A DNA stretch of 64,000 nucleotides from the NCBI GenBank assembly GCA_903813345.2, contig CAIIXF020000001.1, positions 25,234,001 through 25,298,000 on the forward strand, given 5' to 3'. The translations under genes and the position numbers were made by a program. Shown in pieces: positions 1 through 64,000 of the stretch (position 1 is the stretch's first letter; the number at the start of each line of letters is the position of its first letter). The stretch is from Owenia fusiformis. Lineage: Eukaryota. Under the pieces are notes generated by a model. That model saw nothing but the letters and a program-made list of their open reading frames with translations, was not told the DNA's origin and made no database searches.

Positions 1-1006
1 CACTTAAAAGATTAATGCAAGCAAAACACTATAATACCATTTTATCGGACTGGATTTAAAACACTTTTTTCATAACAACTTTATAATCTTGGCTAATGCT
101 CAAAGTGAGTCTGCAACCATATATCAAAATGTGGCACTCCACTTCATTGGAATGTTTTCAATTGCTTCTACTACAAAGAAAGAGGCAATCTTGAATACAT
201 ATGGACAATTGCAATCAACAGATGCAGTTAGCGCGCAACATGTACATGTGAAAGTGATTTACAGTATATTTATTAACACCAATGCTGTTATTCAACGTTA
301 TCTGTTTTCCTCACGTTACAATAAAACCCGTCTTTGGAAATTGCTCTTTCCAGTGATAAATATTTCTAGTAACATACTTAATTGACTTCTGTAAAACAAA
401 CTCGTTTGTGACTTACCTACAGTTAACCCTTTTGGTCCTATTTTTCTCCATATATAATCACACTCAGGTTTTACCTATGTACTTACAGTCTCTCCGAGAC
501 ACTGGAAATGTGTACAGTTTACACTGATATCATCCCAATATGATAGAATTCGGGTTTTATTAAGAAATCGGTTATATGCAATGAAGATAGACTTCATTTA
601 GTTATTAATTGAAATGAAATATTTCAAAGTTCAAGAGTACACGAGTTTGCGTACGCGTTTTCAGATGCGTCATTCTCTAAAACAAAGAGTAAATTGGATA
701 CTCTTTTGATCTAAAAGTAGAAACTCACTCAATGCTCGTTGGATTGTAAATGCCATGGATAAAGTAAAGAAGGTGGAAAAATCACAAACTATTGTTTTCG
801 TATAGCACCGTCTGCTCAGAATGGAGATGGACACATTAGAAAGGTTACGCACGTTTTAGCCCCACGTATCTAAAATCCGTAACGCTCACCAGATTTATGC
901 GTAATAGTTCAATTGAAACGAGATGCGGTTACGGATACGTTCTAGCTATACCCTGTTGTGCGAATCCTCTCTACTAAAACAAAATTGCCGTACTGTTCTA
1001 ACCCCC

Positions 1007-17348: not shown

Positions 17349-19216
17349 ATGGAGTCAGATCGAGATGAATGTATAGCCACATACTTTGAAGACGGTTTTA
17401 CGTACAAGGAGATCGGCATGTTGTTAAAGTTCCGTCATGGAATTACACTTTCGGAGAGACAGATCAAGAGGGATTTAAAGAAGATGGGGCTCTCAAGAAA
17501 ATTCGATAAAACTGCCATTGGCACAGTTGCTGACGCTATCATTCAAGAGATAGATCATGGCAGTGGGTCAGCAATGGGATACCGGAGTATGCATGGCAAA
17601 ATCACAAAAGTCCATGGGTAAGTCAATTGATTGATCAATCTCCACAATTTTACCATCGGGGAAGTATCAATGTCCTGATTCCGGAATCGAGAATAGTATC
17701 TGGTACCCCGAATCCCGATTGTAAAATTGTGGAGATTGGATTTGAAAAATCAGCCCCACATTTATGAGGTACATGTATGGGAAGGCATAGGCTGGAATGT
17801 GATTCCGCCAATCAGATCACTTTAAGGCCAGCAACTATTCTGCCGTCAACTGAATACTTTTCTTGAAAATACCTACTGTATGCTGCCCATCAAGTCAGTT
17901 CAACATACACCAGTACTCAATACATGTTACCTAGGTCATCTCAGTACCTGTACCTGTCGCTTAGTTTTCATTGAAGGCAAACTCAATTATTAAAAAGATG
18001 TCATCATGACGTTTGAAACCGTTGCCACTTGTGGCATAAGTTAAAAAAGTTGTGTCGTATCTTAATCTCAGTACATGTATTTTCCCCTTTTTGGTCCTCG
18101 TCATCTCATTTTCTGGTATATGTCACCTCAGAGTGCTGTTGTTTCATTTTCTGTTACCCATCAATTCAGTTGTTCCCGTCAACTCAGTTTTGTACCTGTC
18201 ATCCCGCCCAATAAGATACTCATAAAGTTCTTTACCATTATACTGTATTTCACTATTTTATCTCCCCTTTTTCTGGCATAAAATAAAGTATGACAGCTTT
18301 TGTGAATTGCAGGCTGAAAACAGATCATGAAACAATTCGCCGTTTGCTCTCAGTTCTTGACCCAGAAGGTGTACACAAACGATCAACGAGACGCTTACAA
18401 AGGCGACAATATACATCTGAAGGGAGCAACTATATATGGCATATTGATGGCTGGGATAAACTAACTCCATATGGTTTAACTGTCCATGGATGCTTGGATG
18501 GATTCAGTAGAAGAATATTGTGGCTCAAAGCAGGATCTTCAAATAAAAACTCTATGTTAATTTGCAAATACTTTTGCGATTGTGTTAAAAATGTAAATGG
18601 TATTCCAAAGATTGTTCGCGCAGATCGGGGGACTGAGAATGTCAAGGTTGAACTGCTTCAAACTGTTCTACGCTCTGTAAATGATGACTGTTCATGTAAA
18701 GTTGCATTTCTGTATGGAAAATCAACTGCAAACCAGAGAATAGAAAGTTTCTGGAGTAAATTTCCAATATATGGAGCAGCAATGTGGATATCTCACTGCC
18801 GCCAGCTGTTAGATGTTGGCATTATTGACAATTCAAACATACTAGACATTGAGTGTATGAGATATTGTTACATGGATCTACTGCAAAGAGAACTTGACAC
18901 AACGCAAAGAATGTGGAATACACACCATATTCAAAAATCAAAATCTGTCAGTTCAGTTAATGGGAAACCAGATATTCTGTACTTTGCCCCTGAAGAATTT
19001 GGACATAAGGATGTGTTGCAAAAGATTGACCAAGAAATATTTGCTCAGTTAGAATCTGACAATACTTGTGTTGTAGAAACTAACAAGGAACACTTCAAAG
19101 AATTATTCCAAATGCTTATGGAGGAAAGTGGAAAATCAACCCCTAACACATTAGAGGAGGCAAGAGAGTTGCTGGTTTTTCTGTTAGATAAAATTAATCA
19201 TGAACTGCAACAATAA
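17349..19216 (+). CDS. IS3EU-type DDE transposase/integrase, 2 exons, 390 aa
   Basis: Exons 17349-17617 (GG|gtaagt) and 18313-19216 (ttgcag|G) join in frame (phase 2). N-terminal HTH/Clr5-like segment YFEDGFTYKEIGMLLKFRHGITLSERQIKR. Catalytic motifs WHIDGWDKL, VRADRGTEN and STANQRIESFW, with 39 residues between the second D and the E. No stops or frameshifts. Confidence 0.92.
17636..17738. repeat. About 100-bp hairpin (mini-MITE-like) in the transposase intron
   Basis: CAATCTCCACAATTTTACCATCGGG pairs with CCCGATTGTAAAATTGTGGAGATTG (24 of 25). Confidence 0.7.
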
Positions 19217-54849: not shown

Positions 54850-55420
54850 GTTTATAATTAAAAATGTATGAATATAAAATAGTACCTTTAATTTATAAGA
54901 AAGAGAGTATGAGCAACTTATTGGGAGCAGGAGCAATGGGGACACCAAACTGATACTAAAGATATTGTACGTATAATGTGTAACATAATGACATCTACTG
55001 AGGATATTAATATGATGAGTTAACAAATAAGGAAGAATAAAAAAAAATGTGTACTATGCCCTAATAATGATTATTTGGAATTTTGCTGATCAGGAAGTTT
55101 TTTAGTCTTGATTTAGAAATACTCAGAGAAGGGCTATTTTTTAGATACAAAGGTAGATTATTCCAAATGATTTGTCCTTGGGTTTTTATTGAAAACAATC
55201 CTATATTCGTTTTAAACGTTTGTGCATGTAGCTCTTTGTTTTGTTTTGTAAAATAATTATGAATTTGGTCATTGCGATAATAATAGTCACCGAAGAGCTG
55301 TTGGTAAATTGTGAGGTTGTTATACCATTCATACACAAATTGACCAATGTTATACTCGAAGATGCTTGCAATTGGGAAAACTTTACTAAGCTATACTGCC
55401 TGAAATTCAAATGTTATATT
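54850..55420 (-). mobile_element. 5-prime-truncated CR1/L2-group LINE remnant
   Basis: Minus-strand peptide HNYFTKQ..LHAQTFKTNIGLFSIKTQGQIIWNNLPLYLKNSPSLSISKSRLKNFLI resembles the C-terminal tail of CR1/L2 ORF2. It is frameshifted upstream. Confidence 0.7.
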
Positions 55421-55573
55421 ACACTGCACAATTTTGAATGATATTGTACAGCGAGCTGCACAAAACAAGAACATTTGGAAAAATACATATATCAAACAAA
55501 TTGAAAATGAACGATAATTCACTGTTCTATATTCATCATTTATCATTTCAGACGATATAACAACCAAAAGAAC

Positions 55574-58500
55574 ATGAAGTTTGGGAATACATTGCTCAGA
55601 CTGAGTGAAAATGACAGCAAGTATGGCCACCAATACATGCAGTATAAACTTCTCAAGATGCACGTTAAGGAGCAAAAAGGGAACAACGACCCACAGAAAG
55701 AAGTGGAGTTTGTCCGCATGCTTGAAAGTGAGCTTCAACGGATCAAGAAGCTTATCTCTGCAAAGTAAAGTTATTTTTGTTAAAGAGTTTTAGATTCTTC
55801 ATATCAGCAAAAAACGGCAGACTGCTAACAATCATGCGTCACAAATGTAAAAAAACATACTGTTGTTCTTTCTACATTTGCACATATCATCAAAACAAGA
55901 GAAAGTTATGTTACGCTTTGTACAATTGTCATCAATGCACGGAAACGTATTATAGATCATCATCCCGATTAAAGTGTAAGAACGCCAAAAAGTAAAACAA
56001 ATACTAAATTATCTACTCTAACGCAAGCAAGGCAACACGTTAAAATTAATTTGCTCAGCATCAGGACCTTTACTTTTATTTTATGTCATGCCAGAGACAC
56101 AGAAAGATACATTTTGGAATATGAACTAAGTGCAGGTAGAATCTGATAGATTAATAGGTTAAAGGGGATTCGTTAATGATTTAAAGCGAAACCCTGTTGA
56201 CGAGAATGTTTGCGTTTCCTTTTTAGAAATATCAAAGAGACAATTCCAAAGCATCGAAAGAAAAAATAAAACAATAAGGTTATATCGCAATGTTATTTAT
56301 TTTATATAAAAATGCCGAAGAAAGTAGGATGTAGGTACTATGTGTATAAAATTTGACGCGAAACAACTAGAGTTTTATAAAGTATATGAATTAATTGACC
56401 AAAGCATGAATTTGAAAATACATACACATAATGGTCCCAAAAACAAGCGAAATGCTTGGCCTGGTAAGTCCTCACACCTCTAACGATTAGTATGTTATTT
56501 TAGGATAGACGAACTAAAGAGTGCAGGACAAGGTTTGCAAATGTCGGTTAAAATGGCGGATATTTCGAACGAAATCCCTGATTTGCAACGTCTGGGGAAC
56601 CAAGCAGATGTCTTAGCGACAGATATGGCTGAAATCGAACGTTTTGTTTTCTACAACAAAGAAGGATTCCGTAAAATTGTGAAGAAGCACGACAAGGTGA
56701 CTGGAACAAGATCGTTTTGGTTCGAAGCCCAGAAGCACGCAGAGTTTTTCTCAGACTTAGCACACGAACTTGAAGGAATTCTTATCCAGCTCAGTGACAT
56801 CTATGAGTATATACGGGAGAAGCAGGGAGGTAACAAGGTGTCAGCAGAGCACAAAGTGTCTCAGGTATGATTGACATAGACCTAATTGCTTATCTTATAC
56901 AATTATATGGACACATCTCGTACGAAATAATGAACCATTACAAACAAACTAGATATAGCTAATATCCATGATAAAAATATATTGAATTTAAAATACATTT
57001 CAGGAAACATTCGAACGTAAGAGTACAAAATATTGGATAGCAATGGAGGATGCATTTCTACTGAAGACAATGCTAGTGAAGCACATGCCATTGTACATCT
57101 TCTCTAGGACAAAGCAAGAAGATAACAAGAGGATGGCAAACAAAAGGACAAGCATCTTACTTCAGGTAGAATTCATTCCAATCAAGTACAATGTTTTAAG
57201 AAGTGCAAGAAACTAGAAAACAGAGTAAGACTCTTCTCTTCTGTCTCTATTTTCAAAAAGTATTTATTGTTAGGAAAGCCCTCGATGTGCATGTAGAGAG
57301 TAAAAATCGGTTCATAGAAAACACTATCTAAGCAAAGGGAAAAGACCAAAAACTGTGAAAAGGCTAGCAAGAAAAGCAAACTCTAATTGTTAACCTGTCA
57401 TTAGAAAAATAGACCATTTTTATCCCAAAAACCATCATGATTTAACGTGAAAAAATAATGTCTAACATTCTCCTTCACCCCTTCAATCAAGAACAAATAT
57501 CAGAATCCAGGACCAAAACACCAAAGGACATTTCATTCATACTGAAGACAGTTGTTGATGAAAGAAATGACGATAATCATAACATCAAAAATAGTTGTAG
57601 ACACTAGTACTCGTAAAAGGAGCATTCGGTCTCAAATGATGTGGGATAGACGAAATCCAGTCTCGAAGCCCATAGACAATTCAAAAGGCCATCATCCGTT
57701 CGCAAAGCCGTCGCCTAATCCATAAAACACTAATAATTCACAATCACACAATAAAATGGTCATCGGGAAAAAATGTAAATGCTTTCGATCCCTATTTCTC
57801 AGCTAATGATATTATAACAAATTTATTTCACATAGGACCATGGTAAGAAGTTTGAAGAATTCAAATTTCTCCAAAAATCAGGCTGGATATCATCGGTCTA
57901 CTTCGACAGTACAGATCTCCACTCATACCACAGGCGAGTGGCCATGAAAGAAGGCGCTACTCTTATCCGTATACGATGGTAAGATTTGTTCAGTATAAAG
58001 ATATCTGACCAAGTTTTCCAAGAAAGAAACATTAAACAAACATAGAAAAAGAGAACAACGCAATGGCATTTTTATCATTCAACACATGTTTCAACAAGAT
58101 GAATCTTACTGTAGAAGTATTATATTTCATCCTGCATCAATAGAACCTGGTCAGTTATTCCGGTGGGAATTTTGAAATAAGGACCGGACCTCTCAATTCT
58201 ACGTTGGTTTAGTACGTGTAACTATGAATCTTGATGAATTGATTTATCTCTCCCTTTTGAAAGTTAATACTATAATCAATATCTAACTATATTAGTAGTT
58301 AAAGTAACCAGTGTTGGATGACTTATTCTACAGAATGAGTAACATATACATATTTCAGCTCTATATGCTCTTTACATATTACTTTTTCCATTTCCGTTGT
58401 TCAAATGCTTTCCAGTGTTTCAGGATAGGTTATGATTGCAGGTATGGTGATCCAGATGAATCAAGCGTTGCTGGCGATATGTACCTTCCACGTCCCCCAG

Positions 58501-61500
58501 CAAAGGGGCTCTTCTGTGAGCGGAAGACCCACCACGAGTGTTGGGTTGCAGAAGACAGTCTCAAAGAAAGATTCCCTATCAAGAAAAATAACATCACAGA
58601 CTTCATAACTGGTGAGTTGTTACTTAAAGTGCATCTTTAAATAGCTTTTGAAAATTGTTTATCAACTTCGAAAATCTTTTTTTTTTGAAAATGTGACTTC
58701 CAAGTTCTGGGAGATTCCCAATAGACCTCATGTTATAAAATTACTAAAAGTTAAGTATTTCTTGGACAGATAATATTTTCTTTTACTGGACATATTTTGA
58801 TTTGCATAACTATTAGATACATATGGGTGATATGAAAATTGAACCGCTAAAAGTGATGAATATTTAATTAACAATAACTGTCTACTATACCTGCCATGCT
58901 ATCTGACCCGAATGAGCCACCTGGTGGTGAAACTGGTAGCTACCTACTCATCTGAGTTATTATGTGTAAATTAATGGGTGATTTAATTGACCATAGTTTA
59001 ATCTTGAATGAAGGGAAAAAACCAGCAGCTGAATGTTGTTTGAGCTCAGGAGATAGTGCAATGTCTTTGGCTGAAGAGATACAGAAAGAGATATTGGATA
59101 ATAAACTTGTACCGATGGTGAGAACTGTCTATAAACGATCAGCATTTCAGCTAGAGGAAACCAATGATGTCCGAATAACGTAAGCATAGATACGGAAAGG
59201 TATAATTTGTAGAATTGCTGTCAACATCTTAATTGTTTATCTTTCTTGTCATTAGCCAGAACTAATCTTTTTTATCTTCTAGAAACGACAACATCAAAAT
59301 AGTTTTCCATCTGTTTTGTCATTTATAGCTTGGATCAAGCCCTATCGTTTGTCAATGAACATCCGAGTGTCAGAGATGATGCCACGTGGCATAGAGATGA
59401 GACAGAGCTTGAGAACAACGAGGACTGGATTAGTTTCCATGCAGCTGTTTTAGAAGTTAAGCTGAAGACTGCTTCCCCAGAATGGTTAGAGGAACTGCTG
59501 AAGTCTCCGATTATTAGAATGGTATGGTCCCTCTTATTAAAATCAATTAAAACCACAAAATGTACGTTGTATTACCAACGGGATGTTATTCACATATTCT
59601 ATTTTTTCTATTATAATCGTATAGGTGAACAAGTTTTCAAAGTTTCAACAAAGTTGTACATCATACAATGCTGATAAAGTGAAGATATGGCCATATTGGT
59701 TCGAAGATGATGAAATAAAAGAAGCAAAGAAAAGAACAAAAAAGGTATAGGAAAACTTCGTATTTCAGAAATTCTCTTTCCAAAATATATAGGATGTTAC
59801 TACATTATGTCATCATATTCTATACTGTCACAGTTTGCCATCGTCATTAAATAATTTGAATTTTTGTTCAATACTTGTCCGAGGCATTGTTGCGGAAGAA
59901 TATAAAATAGCTGAGCATTAGAAACTATTCAGAATTGCACATTTCATTGTTTTAATGCTCAGACTATGTTATTAGATTTCAATGGCAACTCAGATGAACA
60001 GTTTGAAATTTAAAAGGTGTTTGCTTAAAAACTTGAGTATTGTAATCGGTCTTGCTAGCAAATACCTCCTTTGATACTGGTTTACATCAATTAGTAATCT
60101 TTTGTTTTATTTAGATTAGACAAGCAAAGGACGAAGACGAAGGAATAGTCAGGGAGGAAAACAAAGAGCAAACATTAAGAAAGCCAACACCGTCATTTGG
60201 CCTTGAACCCGACTACGCATATGATAATAAGGCTTATGGCGATGATGCACTGGGTGACATAGAGATGGGGATGTTTGAGAAAAAGGCTCCAAGTGTGAAT
60301 GATGTCCCTGGTGGTACGATAGGTAGGCAGACGTTGATCTTAAAAGTAAAAACACATTCCAAAATAAAACAATAAATTCAAATATTACGATCCAAAAACA
60401 TATTCAAAAGGTAATTGCTTGTTGCTATCCATTGAGAAATAGTTTCTTGGGCACATAACAATATACTGCCAAAATCAGATGAAAAGATGAGAAATAACAA
60501 ACTATGAAACTGAAATTTTCACATCAATAGTCTATGATCATGATCCTATTTTGATTTAAAGGTACATTTGTATCAACTGTAAATGATAACCCTCCTGGTA
60601 TAAAAACCATCGATATGACGGAGCACTCATTAAAGAATGGGACAAGTGCGTACAGCAATGGAGGTACAGCCATTACGAAACAGAGAAAACGATTAGCCTC
60701 CGAGAACAAACCAGAAGCCGTATACAATGACAACGATGATAACACCAACTGCTTTGGAAAACCCCAAAAATTCAAGAAGGCTACAAAGCGCTTAAAGATT
60801 GAACCGAAAACATATTTTGCCAACGAAAGAACATTTATGCAATGGAGTACTGCTGCATTGTTTCTGATTGGTATAGGTGGCACTTTGGTTGGAACGCAAA
60901 GTGAGGTTGCAAGAGTTGTAACAATCGTCTTTTTCGCCCTCGCTCTTTTCATGGTGTTGTATGCCTGCGTGGTATTTTATGTAAGTACAACTTCATTTAA
61001 TTTCTTGAAGTTTAACGTTAGGATGAATTCGAAAACTAGTGAATCCTGATGGAATTCCCAATGGTAAGTTTGGACCAAGTTAGAATTACTTGAATCTATT
61101 TCACTGAAGCAAGACATCAGTCTGGCAACGTGTTGTATTATACTCGTATAGTTGACATTGATTAATCAATCATTCCAGGTGCGCATGGTTCTAATCAAAA
61201 GAGGAACATCGGGAAGATTTGATGATTGGTTTGGCCCTGCGCTGTTGACGTGCTTACTCATTACTGGCCTTGGTTTTTCATTCTACGCCTTTCACTATTC
61301 TTGGACCATGCTACGTGAGTGGTGCATTAATTCATATTTAAAACAAACACTGGTTAAATGCTCTCATAATTGAAATGAACACCCTTTCCTAATCTCCTTG
61401 TGGCTGAAAATTGTATAACTATATTCTTAAGAACTGAAATGGAAAGAACTTGAAAATAAATAGATGTTGATCTAAAATATTTCAGCGCTTACCGTCATAC

Positions 61501-62784
61501 CAATTCAGTACTGGGAGTCACCCGTGTGTGTTAAACTTCAATTGAAGAACAATCCGGTGTTCTTCTCTCCGAGTGGATTATCCACCAACGATCCAGAAAG
61601 GCGTTTGGCCTGGACTTGTGCTGACAACAGAATAGCTCAACTAGACCTGGACACTGGAGAGTTCCTGCAGGTTCATACGATTGGAGGTCTGTTCATAATG
61701 ATTTATAATTCTTGTTCGCTGAAGGAATATGCATAGTTTGCATACCTTTCAAATTCGTACAAGTCCGATACTGATATAAATCCCAGGATCAAACAAAATG
61801 CGGTAGATGTGTGGCACGTGTTTCAAGATTGTTATTAATGATAGATTAATTTTCAGATGAGGGTGTGAAAGATTTCGAATGTGTGACATTTGCAAAAGAC
61901 GCAGATGTGATTTGGATTGGTTCTGAGGAACCGGAGAATGAGATAATTGAATACAACATTAAAACGAAGCGGAGACTTCGAACTTTGTCTATGGAACCAG
62001 TATCAGGTCAGACACTGTTTGATTTTACTTTTTTAAAAGAGAGGTTTCTCTACCTCGGATGTACATTAGGATAACTATCATGTACAACATACAATGCATT
62101 ATCTCAAATTATAACGTAGATGATTAAGCATCATTTGTTCTATTCTAGGGAAAAGTACCAAATTAATGGAAGGGCTTGCCTTCATGGACTTTTACTACCC
62201 TCTGCAAGATTTACCCCAAAAGGTGGTTGGTAACGGGACATTCTTTACGCCGAGACCTCAGAGTTTAGGGTCATTTTACATCCCTGTGGGATTCGGAGGT
62301 GTTTCACCAAGATCGAAGATAAAGGTTCCAGCTGACCTAACTACTGAAAAGATTGGTGCCATGACAACTCTTGGTGATACATTATATACAGTGTTCGATA
62401 ACGCTCACGTACTTGTTGGCTATGATATGTTTACAGCGAAAATGGTGAGTATTGGGCGTTCTTTTGTCGTAAAAATATAATGCTTTAAAAACTAAGACTT
62501 TTACTATTTCATCAGATTTAAATATTATAACGTTTTCAAAAAGCTAGAGGTTGAGACAAATGACTTTTACATTTAGTAGTTGTTAACCGCTGCTGTTGGG
62601 AAATCGATACGAGGATCTATTATTGTTTCAGACGCGTTACCAGATTCCAGGCAACGAGAAGAACTGGGAAGGTATTTTGTTCAGGCCACATAGCTCTGGT
62701 ATGTGGGTTTACTTGGCCAAAGACAACCCACCAGAAATATGGAGATTTGACTTCGATACCAACAGTGGTTTCAAAGGATGTTAA
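55574..62784 (+). CDS. VTC4: VTC4-like polyphosphate polymerase (SPX + VTC + DUF202 3-TM + C-terminal beta-propeller-like domain), 15 coding exons, about 1022 aa
   Basis: Exons 55574-55764, 56504-56864, 57004-57165, 57836-57978, 58442-58611, 59014-59179, 59329-59521, 59625-59744, 60115-60322, 60562-60980, 61179-61314, 61486-61686, 61857-62006, 62149-62444 and 62632-62784 (3069 nt, phases match). SPX: MKFG, YMQYKLLK, FYNKEGFRKIVKKHDK. VTC: FERKSTKYW, ISSVYFDS, IRIRWYG, FCERKTH, SLKERF, MVRTVYKRSAFQ, VRITLD, AVLEVKL, KFSKF, WPYW. TM: KIEPKTYFANERTFMQW and FDDWFGP. The exon 6 acceptor and exon 9 donor are somewhat uncertain. Confidence 0.92.
58660..58955 (+). repeat. Dispersed repeat of about 300 bp, copy in VTC4 intron 5
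   Basis: Collinear with 35450-35780. Confidence 0.8.
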
Positions 62785-64000
62785 TTAACATCAAATAACA
62801 CATTTTGGATTGACTTTGAACTTTGAAGTTTTTGCATTTTTATAACGGATACTGTTGAATAGGAAACAGTTCTAGCAATTTTGATAAAGGCTTTATTTGA
62901 ATGGCGATTATGTTGAATAAAATATCGGATGGGGATAAAAAATGGCCGTACTTTGACACTCAATATATCCAAACTCCTACATATACTTCTAAAAATCTGC
63001 ACACTGAAAATGCATCATGTCCTTAATACACAGACTAGATTTCAATTTCATCCATCATGATTTCCGTTCATGGTAGCAAAATCATTTCCTGGTTTCACTT
63101 GAAAAGGTGATCATTTGGTCCTCCATCTTCTCGATAGATGATGTGCAAGTGTTTTCTCCATGAACTGATTGAGCCTTAAGTCTAAGTAAATGTTCACAAC
63201 AGCCTCTTAACAATAATTTCTCGTTTTCGTCTACAATTAAGCGTGGTCATCTGGCTATTGCGTGCATCTGGCTATTTTTGGGCCCCTAGAACCAAATTTT
63301 GAAAAATTAAGGCCCATTTTTTGATAAATTGGCCCAAAAGATCAAATTATACCCAAAAAGGCCCATTTTTGAGGCCCTACAAAATGTTAGGGCCCATAAA
63401 CTAATTTATTCTGGGCCCACTAAAGGGGGAGGCGGTCTCCATGGCCTCCCGGATCCACCACTGAATTCATTAGCAATTTTGCTTATCTTCAACCCTTTTC
63501 ATTGAAACATGTTGCGATCAATTCCTTGTCCGCCACAGAGAAAAATATCTTGATTCAACAAAACCTGTGCTCACCTTGCAGAAATTTCTTTGACACTAAC
63601 TTTTACTAGACATCACTTGACTAACGCGTGTCACATGGGTGTAGTGCATGCTCTACTCATGAAAGCTGGCAGGTGATGGAATGTGAGTAAGTGAACGTGC
63701 GTTTTTGAGGCTTTGATTTCATTTTGACCATGTGTACAGATTAATCAAGCTATGAACTGTGTCAGCACACAACATCATGTCATTTAAATGTCTAAAGTTG
63801 AAAGGGTTTGGATAAAGATTGTAACATCATGAGAGTACGGTCAATTTTGCCATCCCCACCTGATGTAGTTTAAGAAAGGAGGAATTACGAAGACAGTGGG
63901 GGACATTGATACTATAATATTTTAGTAATTATGACAATTTTCTTCAATTAAAATAAGATACTATTATAAAATGGATTTGTCCTATATTTATATTTCACCA

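Follow-up and report, generated by a model that had tools for sequence, protein, structure and literature searches.

The closest described counterparts of the gene reported here are Vtc4 of the yeast VTC complex, which makes polyphosphate (polyP), and the bacterial SdiA-regulated proteins. The available part of a preprint on the yeast complex reports that the first transmembrane (TM) helices, TM1, taper toward the intravacuolar side, and it places the MX helix at the C-terminus of Vtc3 on the vacuolar face (bioRxiv 10.1101/2023.01.27.525886). In the yeast material that we could draw on, no VTC subunit is described with an element after TM3 on this face other than the MX helix of Vtc2 and Vtc3. 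The SdiA-regulated family was only predicted to form a propeller in the excerpted text of a 2005 paper (PMC1084347). According to the accessible text of a 2023 review, Vtc4 is restricted to fungi within Opisthokonta (PMC10657179), and the retrieved passage of an eLife article of 2026 calls the metazoan polyP kinases 'still elusive' (PMC13061417). Here we describe a VTC4-like gene of the annelid Owenia fusiformis that lies in a window of 64,000 nucleotides (contig CAIIXF020000001.1, positions 25,234,001 to 25,298,000 of the forward strand); coordinates below are positions in this window. The gene encodes a Vtc4-type polymerase that continues, after TM3, into what is almost certainly a beta-propeller.

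We compared the gene product, a protein of 1022 amino acids (P0004), to Vtc4 of Saccharomyces cerevisiae (7ytj_D, 8i6v_E). The two share an SPX domain, a TTM/VTC domain, a long disordered linker and three DUF202 TM helices, in that order. In contrast to yeast Vtc4, the Owenia protein adds a linker of 15 residues and a propeller of 256 residues, belongs to an animal, is encoded by a gene with 14 introns, and has a Pfam SPX score below the cut-off (22.7 bits vs 27.8). Among PDB sequences searched with phmmer, P0004 matched yeast Vtc4 (8i6v_E) with an E-value of 3.1e-61, in three stretches over SPX, the tunnel domain and the TM region. The SPX domain (residues ~1-170; 55574..56822, + strand) was placed by phmmer, which aligned Owenia residues 1-224 to yeast residues 1-231 (i-Evalue 2.2e-17), and by the full-length AlphaFold2 (AF2) model, in which residues 3-170 are helical. 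The VTC/TTM polyP polymerase domain (residues 189-475; 57016..59663, +) matches Pfam PF09359 (E 2e-57). Owenia K193, R283, R285, K314, E440 and K468 stand opposite yeast K200, R264, R266, K281, E426 and K458 in the HMMER alignment. These yeast residues are reported to be the catalytic residues of the tunnel (Hothorn et al. 2009).

The three TM helices (TM1 653-681, TM2 686-719, TM3 730-751; 60804..61298, +) were located by Pfam (DUF202 at residues 654-713, E 2e-9), by alignment to yeast Vtc4 and by AF2, and this region also aligns with Vtc1. Owenia K654 and R661 stand opposite K622 and R629 of yeast Vtc4, which form basic rings at the channel mouth in the available part of the preprint (bioRxiv 10.1101/2023.01.27.525886). 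The alignments show P0004 to be a complete Vtc4-type polymerase in which the residues aligned with those of the catalytic site and the channel mouth are all kept.

The Owenia protein extends well past the end of yeast Vtc4. Yeast residues 616-716 aligned to Owenia residues 648-748; the yeast protein ends at 721, 5 residues past the alignment, and the Owenia protein runs to 1022. In an alignment of VTC4-type proteins (A2), 14 of the 16 that have no propeller contain 4-24 residues after the TM3 column, and the eight propeller-bearing rows contain 266-301. The full-length AF2 model of P0004 (mean pLDDT, the predicted local distance difference test, 80.7) contains the TM helices, a linker of low confidence and, from there to the C-terminus, a beta domain modelled with confidence. 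TM3 and the propeller are separated by this flexible linker (residues 752-766; 61299..61514, +), which spans intron 11 and has a pLDDT below 50 in this model. An earlier reading of the bare sequence (the original prediction) had claimed three hydrophobic segments followed by an extra C-terminal domain that yeast Vtc4 lacks. The three segments are the DUF202 helices, and the extra sequence is a 266-residue tail.

The whole gene occupies 55574..62784 (+) and has 15 exons and 14 introns, as determined by a junction search, tblastn of P0004, and the spliced contig of sequencing run X12. Exons 1-5 (+) are 55574-55764, 56504-56864, 57004-57165, 57836-57978 and 58442-58611; exons 6-10 (+) are 59014-59179, 59329-59521, 59625-59744, 60115-60322 and 60562-60980; and exons 11-15 (+) are 61179-61314, 61486-61686, 61857-62006, 62149-62444 and 62632-62784. 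When the exon chain was rebuilt from the sequence, all 14 introns had GT..AG ends, each had one frame-keeping solution near the tblastn boundaries, and the intron phases were mutually consistent. The rebuilt translation was P0004, letter for letter (1022 amino acids, deposited as 'unnamed protein product [Owenia fusiformis]' on a 62.2-Mb contig). The final 266 residues come from exons 12-15 (61486-62784, +). Exon 12 begins with base 61486 and the TAA stop codon finishes with base 62784, exactly the limits given for the extra domain in the original prediction.

We compared four sequencing runs with positions 55400-63200 of the window: X12, in the form of Logan contigs, and X16-X18, as raw RNA-seq. 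In X12, one contig of 3323 nucleotides (depth 23.2) extended from 55551 to 62941 through exons 1-15, and the introns were absent at their GT..AG ends. Its joints included 60980>61179, 61314>61486 (exon 11 to exon 12), 61684>61855 and 62004>62147, its pieces 62147-62443 and 62631-62941 were consecutive, and it reached the 3' untranslated region. The kind of run is not on record for X12; from the absent introns we infer that it is cDNA. The whole VTC4-propeller gene is transcribed as one mRNA. Because one contig joins exon 11 to exon 12, the transcript runs on past exon 11 and exons 12-15 are part of the same gene as the VTC domain, as had been predicted. Very few reads of X16-X18 fell on the gene, and only 1-2 of them were spliced at three upstream joints. 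The gene is weakly expressed in these samples.

The tail contains a predicted five-bladed beta-propeller of the SdiA-regulated/YjiK type (residues 767-1022; 61515..62781, in exons 12-15 without the introns, +), identified by AF2, by its match to E. coli YjiK (3qqz) and by hhalign. The input to AF2 was an alignment of 36 rows (A1) made from the 266-residue domain, 35 of its 37 phmmer matches and one cluster member. We divided the full-length domains in A1 into a fused type, which adjoins DUF202 or VTC (17 rows), and a bacterial type (10 rows). The domain model had a mean pLDDT of 92.9 and a predicted template modelling score (pTM) of 0.90, and all five models were above 92. It has ~21 strands as assigned by DSSP. 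Each of five motif strands is followed by three more strands, and an N-terminal strand at domain positions 15-17 (position 15 is Cys771) is left to complete the last sheet. From this strand pattern and the structural neighbors, we take the model to have five blades of four strands each, closed by a strand from the N-terminus.

Five blade-like motifs had been pointed out in the original prediction, and they mark the inner strands of the five predicted blades, each motif lying at the first strand of its blade or immediately ahead of it. The motif of blade 1, FSPSGLS (residues 783-789; 61563..61583, +; model strand 30-33), has P in 17/17 and S in 16/17 fused-type rows and aligns with the S-L motif of YjiK. 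Blade 2 has DFECVTF (residues 829-835; 61871..61891, +; strand 74-79), which aligns with DLE of YjiK; D73 is found in 15 and E75 in 14 of the 17 rows. MEGLAF of blade 3 (residues 880-885; 62166..62183, +; strand 128-130) aligns with G-EGLAY of YjiK, and its E125 and G126 are present in 15/17 and 16/17 rows. The motif of blade 4 is IGAMT (residues 942-946; 62352..62366, +; strand 186-192). The conserved K941 lies just before it, and this column, 185, is K or R in 16 of the 17 fused-type rows. In NWEGIL of blade 5 (residues 983-988; 62662..62679, +; strand 228-236), W228 is found in 16/17, E229 in 15/17 and G230 in 17/17 fused-type rows; across the 36 rows of A1 taken together, G230 never varies and E229 hardly does.

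Structural comparisons returned the same fold. Foldseek against the PDB found propellers only, and the highest TM-scores (0.62/0.67) went to the type structure of PF06977, 3qqz, which is the YjiK C-terminal domain from E. coli. VIA-align put 3qqz in first place, whether the set compared was Foldseek's top 1000 or a collection of 48,161 representatives (Z 21.9; root-mean-square deviation (rmsd) 2.7 A; 214 of 243 residues), and its blade motifs S-L, D-E, G-EGLA, D-S and Q-EG align with those of the Owenia domain. YjiK differs in that identity is ~14 %, it is not fused to DUF202, and it lacks the terminal Cys pair of the fused type described below. The six- and seven-bladed families (NHL, WD40, PON/SMP30) matched more weakly, with Z of 16.5 at most. 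The fold proposed originally is borne out by these models and matches. The number of blades had been left unspecified, and is read here as five.

The structural matches also raise the possibility that the domain is an enzyme like the glutaminyl cyclases of plants and bacteria, acting on lumenal proteins. Glutaminyl cyclases (2iwa, 3mbr, 3nol, 3nok) came directly after YjiK at Z 20.0-21.3, statistically tied with it, followed by a gap down to six-bladed NHL domains at Z 16.5 and GH43 enzymes at ~16. The cyclases 2iwa, 3mbr and 3nol are five-bladed and of equal size to the Owenia domain, but no sequence-family link to it was found. The sequence evidence points solely to the SdiA-regulated/Phytase-like families, and the glutaminyl cyclase family was absent from the Pfam scans, both of the domain at E<=10 and among the 15 families listed for 36 relatives. 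We consider a cyclase-like enzyme very improbable.

The domain is very likely a homologue of the SdiA-regulated family, forming a divergent branch of the SdiA-regulated/YjiK lineage. An exhaustive phmmer search with the 266 residues against 1.84 billion representatives, clustered at 50 % identity so that close relatives in other species may be hidden, gave 37 matches at E<=1e-3, 8 at <=1e-10 and 2 at <=1e-30; the best E-values were 6e-72, 1.1e-22 and 8.9e-21. With matches of this strength, the domain is no chance reading of the sequence. Among the 36 rows of A1, Pfam found SdiA-regulated (PF06977) in 11, Phytase-like (PF13449; E<=0.01) in 10, DUF202 in 9 and VTC in 6. Eight of the 10 bacterial-type rows are above the SdiA-regulated cut-off and the other two are above that for Phytase-like. 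When the 17 fused-type and 10 bacterial-type rows were re-aligned separately and compared by hhalign, the match was 99.8 % (E 1e-29) over 228 columns. One fused-type protein with DUF202, P0016, is by itself above the SdiA-regulated cut-off (27.9 vs 21 bits), and the Owenia paralog P0005 has a weak Phytase-like (PF13449) match (21.3 bits vs a cut-off of 27.6; E 2.8e-4). The A1 profile matched 3qqz with an E-value of 4.2e-8 and the blade motifs in register, a match that is not independent of the bacterial members because the profile contained them. In an ESM-Atlas feature search, the ten best named clusters all belonged to the SdiA-regulated/Phytase-like family (score 0.94, 191 shared features). 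The link to SdiA-regulated and phytase-like propellers drawn in the original prediction therefore stands as profile homology and as likeness to the 3qqz fold. It does not extend to a Pfam assignment of the Owenia domain itself, which matched no Pfam model even at E<=10, as the whole 266 residues or as single exon translations; it is relatives that pass the PF06977 gathering score.

One further phmmer match was set aside. P0006, a protein of 4866 amino acids from Heterodera schachtii, had 30 stretches matching domain residues ~109-169 (E 1.2e-36), but a hidden Markov model (HMM) of the domain gave no match to it. This is probably an effect of repeats or composition.

We found the combination of polymerase and propeller in other proteins, in line with the taxon survey that had been suggested. 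A second Owenia gene (P0005, CAH1787178.1), on a 40.8-Mb contig, encodes VTC, DUF202 and the propeller, with 51 % identity in the domain. In the brachiopod Lingula anatina, XP_013413499.1 (P0007), named 'vacuolar transporter chaperone 4-like', also has VTC, DUF202 and the propeller, and a second Lingula gene (P0008/P0043) has VTC and the propeller. Three environmental proteins (P0018, P0021, P0022) have all three parts, and the VTC-propeller architecture occurs in single open reading frames (ORFs) of environmental contigs. Several shorter proteins have DUF202 and the propeller, or a TM-like stretch before the propeller; some of these proteins may be fragments.

The propeller HMM matched none of 30 other VTC4-like proteins (P0048-P0077) at E<=1e-3. 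Word-based homolog searches with exon 14 and with residues 757-1022 found P0004 only, missing the 51 %-identical paralog, and a search with residues 1-500 missed Lingula. Because such searches miss a close paralog, their results are no evidence that the fusion is rare, and with this insensitivity and the clustering at 50 % the survey of named taxa is incomplete.

Trees of the two halves of the protein gave the same grouping. In a tree of 37 VTC cores from which the propeller had been removed, the two Owenia and two Lingula proteins formed a clade with SH-aLRT (Shimodaira-Hasegawa-like approximate likelihood ratio test) support of 99, and the two proteins of each species were sisters. The other fused proteins were elsewhere on a weak backbone; the label 'fused' changes twice on this tree, but its well-supported branches demand a single change. 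In the propeller tree, the grouping of Owenia and Lingula had support of 94, and the split between fused and bacterial types 99. Since the Owenia and Lingula proteins form a clade in both trees, the fusion is older than the split between annelids and brachiopods, and its two halves were later duplicated as a unit. On these trees the fusion is old.

These results also bear on the possibility that exons 12-15 are a separate gene, or that the fusion is an artefact of annotation or assembly. X12 is not identified as RNA in its record, and coverage of the gene by the raw RNA runs is very thin, as this possibility would allow. Against it, a single contig passes through the joint between exons 11 and 12 to the 3' untranslated region, the intron phases and unique GT..AG solutions are consistent, the architecture is repeated in the Owenia paralog on another contig, in Lingula and in environmental single ORFs, and the enzyme and propeller trees agree. 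An artefact of this kind is hardly credible.

Several proteins in these collections had related but different arrangements. P0025/P0080 (346-359 amino acids, on contigs of up to 11 kb), P0016, P0015 and P0010 have a DUF202-like TM region and then a fused-type propeller, with no VTC domain; they are either propeller-bearing Vtc1-like subunits or pieces of longer genes. P0011 (752 amino acids) has the propeller at 39-299 after a TM-like stretch, and ~450 residues with no Pfam match past the terminal Cys. It may be a read-through ORF on a 3.4-kb contig. Two other VTC4-like proteins, P0048 (884 amino acids) and P0064 (969 amino acids), have a different extension of ~264-270 amino acids after TM3, with no match to the propeller HMM (E<=10) or to any Pfam family. 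The two extensions are weakly alike (26 % identity over TM plus extension). Domains seem to have been gained more than once at the lumenal end of VTC4.

The fused-type propellers have a pair of Cys residues of their own. The first, Cys771 (domain position 15; 61527..61529, +), comes shortly after TM3 and is C in 16/17 fused-type rows, and the position is not a conserved column in bacterial-type rows. The second, Cys1022 (62779..62781, +), is the last residue of the protein. A Cys ends every fused-type row that reaches the end of A1, compared with one of the 10 bacterial-type rows (P0028 only). Cys771 and Cys1022 probably form a disulfide that ties the first strand to the C-terminus and clasps the propeller shut. 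Such a disulfide would fit an oxidising lumen or the cell exterior.

The placement of the membrane helices points the same way. A catalytic domain that makes polyP must face the ATP pool. The three TM helices are homologous to those of yeast Vtc4 and Vtc1, which places the C-terminus of the Owenia protein on the lumenal or extracytoplasmic face, and the yeast MX helix is on the vacuolar face. By this analogy, the propeller is in all likelihood lumenal or extracellular, as originally proposed, beside the exit of the pentameric polyP channel and near the outer channel ring. The MX helix is a single amphipathic helix on the membrane and belongs to a non-catalytic subunit, in the yeast material available to us, in contrast to a folded propeller on the catalytic one.

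Conservation in the fused type is concentrated in acidic residues. D73, E75, E91, E125, D201, E229 and D247 are acidic in 14-16 of the 17 fused-type rows, and several are on or just before inner strands. The net charge of the fused-type domains lies between -2 and -24. Where a column is kept in at least 13 of the 17 rows, it holds an acid, G, P, W, S, K, C, L or A. Being acidic, the domain is unable to bind a polyanion on its own; the natural alternative is contact by way of bound cations. The original suggestion that the domain could bind cations or polyP or nucleate granules is compatible with the conserved acidic residues.

The reading that we favor, tentatively and with a little less than even confidence, is that the propeller is a lumenal, cation-bridged receiver of nascent polyP. 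The conserved acids would hold divalent cations (Ca2+ or Mg2+), and the cation-loaded propeller would capture the polyP chain as it emerges. This binding would prevent back-sliding and bias the movement of the chain outward, and the propeller would seed granules of cations and polyP where the chain is made. The one functional hint for the SdiA-regulated family in the literature searched is a link to calcium, through CarP (PA0327) of Pseudomonas aeruginosa, described in the table of a review as a 'Ca2+-regulated beta-propeller protein' whose mutants disturb Ca2+ homeostasis and whose homologues are annotated as SdiA-regulated (PMC10574481). CarP is a soluble or periplasmic bacterial protein, unlike the Owenia domain, and is unconnected to polyP synthesis.

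Several observations weigh against a cation-bridged receiver or the steps leading to it. The acid usual in blade 1 (E-P-S) is replaced by Ser in P0004 (S-P-S) and by Thr in P0005. The seven conserved acids would have to face one pocket, and the two Cys would have to lie close together. In the literature searched, no binding or activity was reported for YjiK. The membrane could be the plasma membrane rather than that of a vacuole-like organelle resembling an acidocalcisome or lysosome. To these we add the points given above: the Owenia domain is without a Pfam match, the profile match to 3qqz is not independent of the bacterial members, run X12 is taken as cDNA from its absent introns, and X16-X18 have almost no depth on the gene.

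The same acids could instead belong to an enzyme. One possibility is a Ca2+-dependent polyphosphatase or phosphodiesterase in the lumen, with the propeller cutting or trimming the chain at the channel exit and so setting its length or releasing the product. The family overlaps the Pfam family 'Esterase-like activity of phytase' (the 10 of 36 relatives and the weak match of P0005 noted above), and conserved acids on inner strands would suit a metal-dependent phosphoesterase. In addition, human SCAN (2h2n), a five-bladed, Ca2+-dependent phosphoanhydride hydrolase of the secretory lumen that acts on nucleotides, matches the domain with Z 14.5 and rmsd 2.7 over 193 residues. However, this match is no better than those of many unrelated propellers, and no conserved His or general base is evident in the columns kept in at least 13 of the 17 rows. 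Phosphatase activity is not demonstrated for SdiA-regulated members in the available portions of the literature searched, and a degrading enzyme fused to a synthase would be wasteful unless tightly controlled. We regard a hydrolase as unlikely.

A second possibility is that the propeller binds proteins or serves assembly, with no direct polyP chemistry: it might dock partners in the lumen or outside the cell, direct the complex to a given organelle, or keep the TM ring together in place of the Vtc2/3 MX helix. Propellers often serve as platforms for interaction, and most of the structural neighbors below the top three are NHL or WD40 scaffolds. In the accessible description of the yeast complex, the lumenal MX helix of Vtc3 packs on TM2 and TM3 of Vtc4, which indicates that the position can serve assembly. 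The unrelated extensions of ~265 amino acids in P0048 and P0064 could also mean that the position simply tolerates add-ons. However, what the fused and bacterial types have in common is a set of acids at or close to inner strands and not a variable surface patch, and the linker of ~15 residues is predicted to be flexible, which argues against rigid packing. We think it improbable that the propeller is a scaffold of this sort, and we retain the cation-bridged receiver as our preferred reading.

Two other parts of the window drew attention. Within intron 5, positions 58532-59053 had an RNA-seq pile-up of 15-30x in three runs and contig depth in the thousands, with many variant letters and with most reads passing into dissimilar sequence. 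It has the look of a dispersed repeat that is expressed. The longest open frame outside the gene, at 18287-19216 (+; 309 amino acids from stop to stop), looks like the remnant of a transposase or integrase.

In the literature searched we found no animal VTC4 and no VTC-propeller fusion, with the limit that the InterPro-based counts in a supplement or figure of PMC10657179 might already list such proteins. Nothing in that literature joins VTC with Lingula, vtc4 with an annelid, or VTC or polyphosphate with SdiA-regulated, and a term search of the text retrieved from a review of microalgal VTC found no mention of a propeller or C-terminal domain (PMC12526157). The proteins are already public under generic names, and the novelty therefore lies in recognizing the architecture, not in the sequences.

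An intron-rich, transcribed annelid Vtc4 on a chromosome-scale contig, with a paralog and two brachiopod relatives, offers a concrete animal gene for study. Its propeller is the first folded domain seen on what is predicted to be the lumenal side of a VTC subunit, where the polymer emerges. With a propeller at the polymer exit, the fate of polyP after translocation (capture, cation loading, formation of granules, trimming) could therefore be studied with one polypeptide. Lingulid brachiopods have apatite shells and Ca/P-rich granules, according to the excerpted text of a review (PMC3824353), and a link to phosphate biomineralisation is worth testing on that account. This is a motivation and not direct support. 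The broadest notion, which is speculative and which we hold to be doubtful, is that a functional VTC polymerase was retained in lophotrochozoans (in an annelid and a phosphate-shelled brachiopod at the least), and that its lumenal or extracellular Ca2+-binding propeller turns the nascent chain into Ca-polyP granules. If true, animals would have their first polyP synthase that can be identified genetically, and its Ca-polyP granules might supply calcium-phosphate biomineralisation or go into secreted materials, for instance the apatite shell of Lingula or the tube and chaetae of Owenia.

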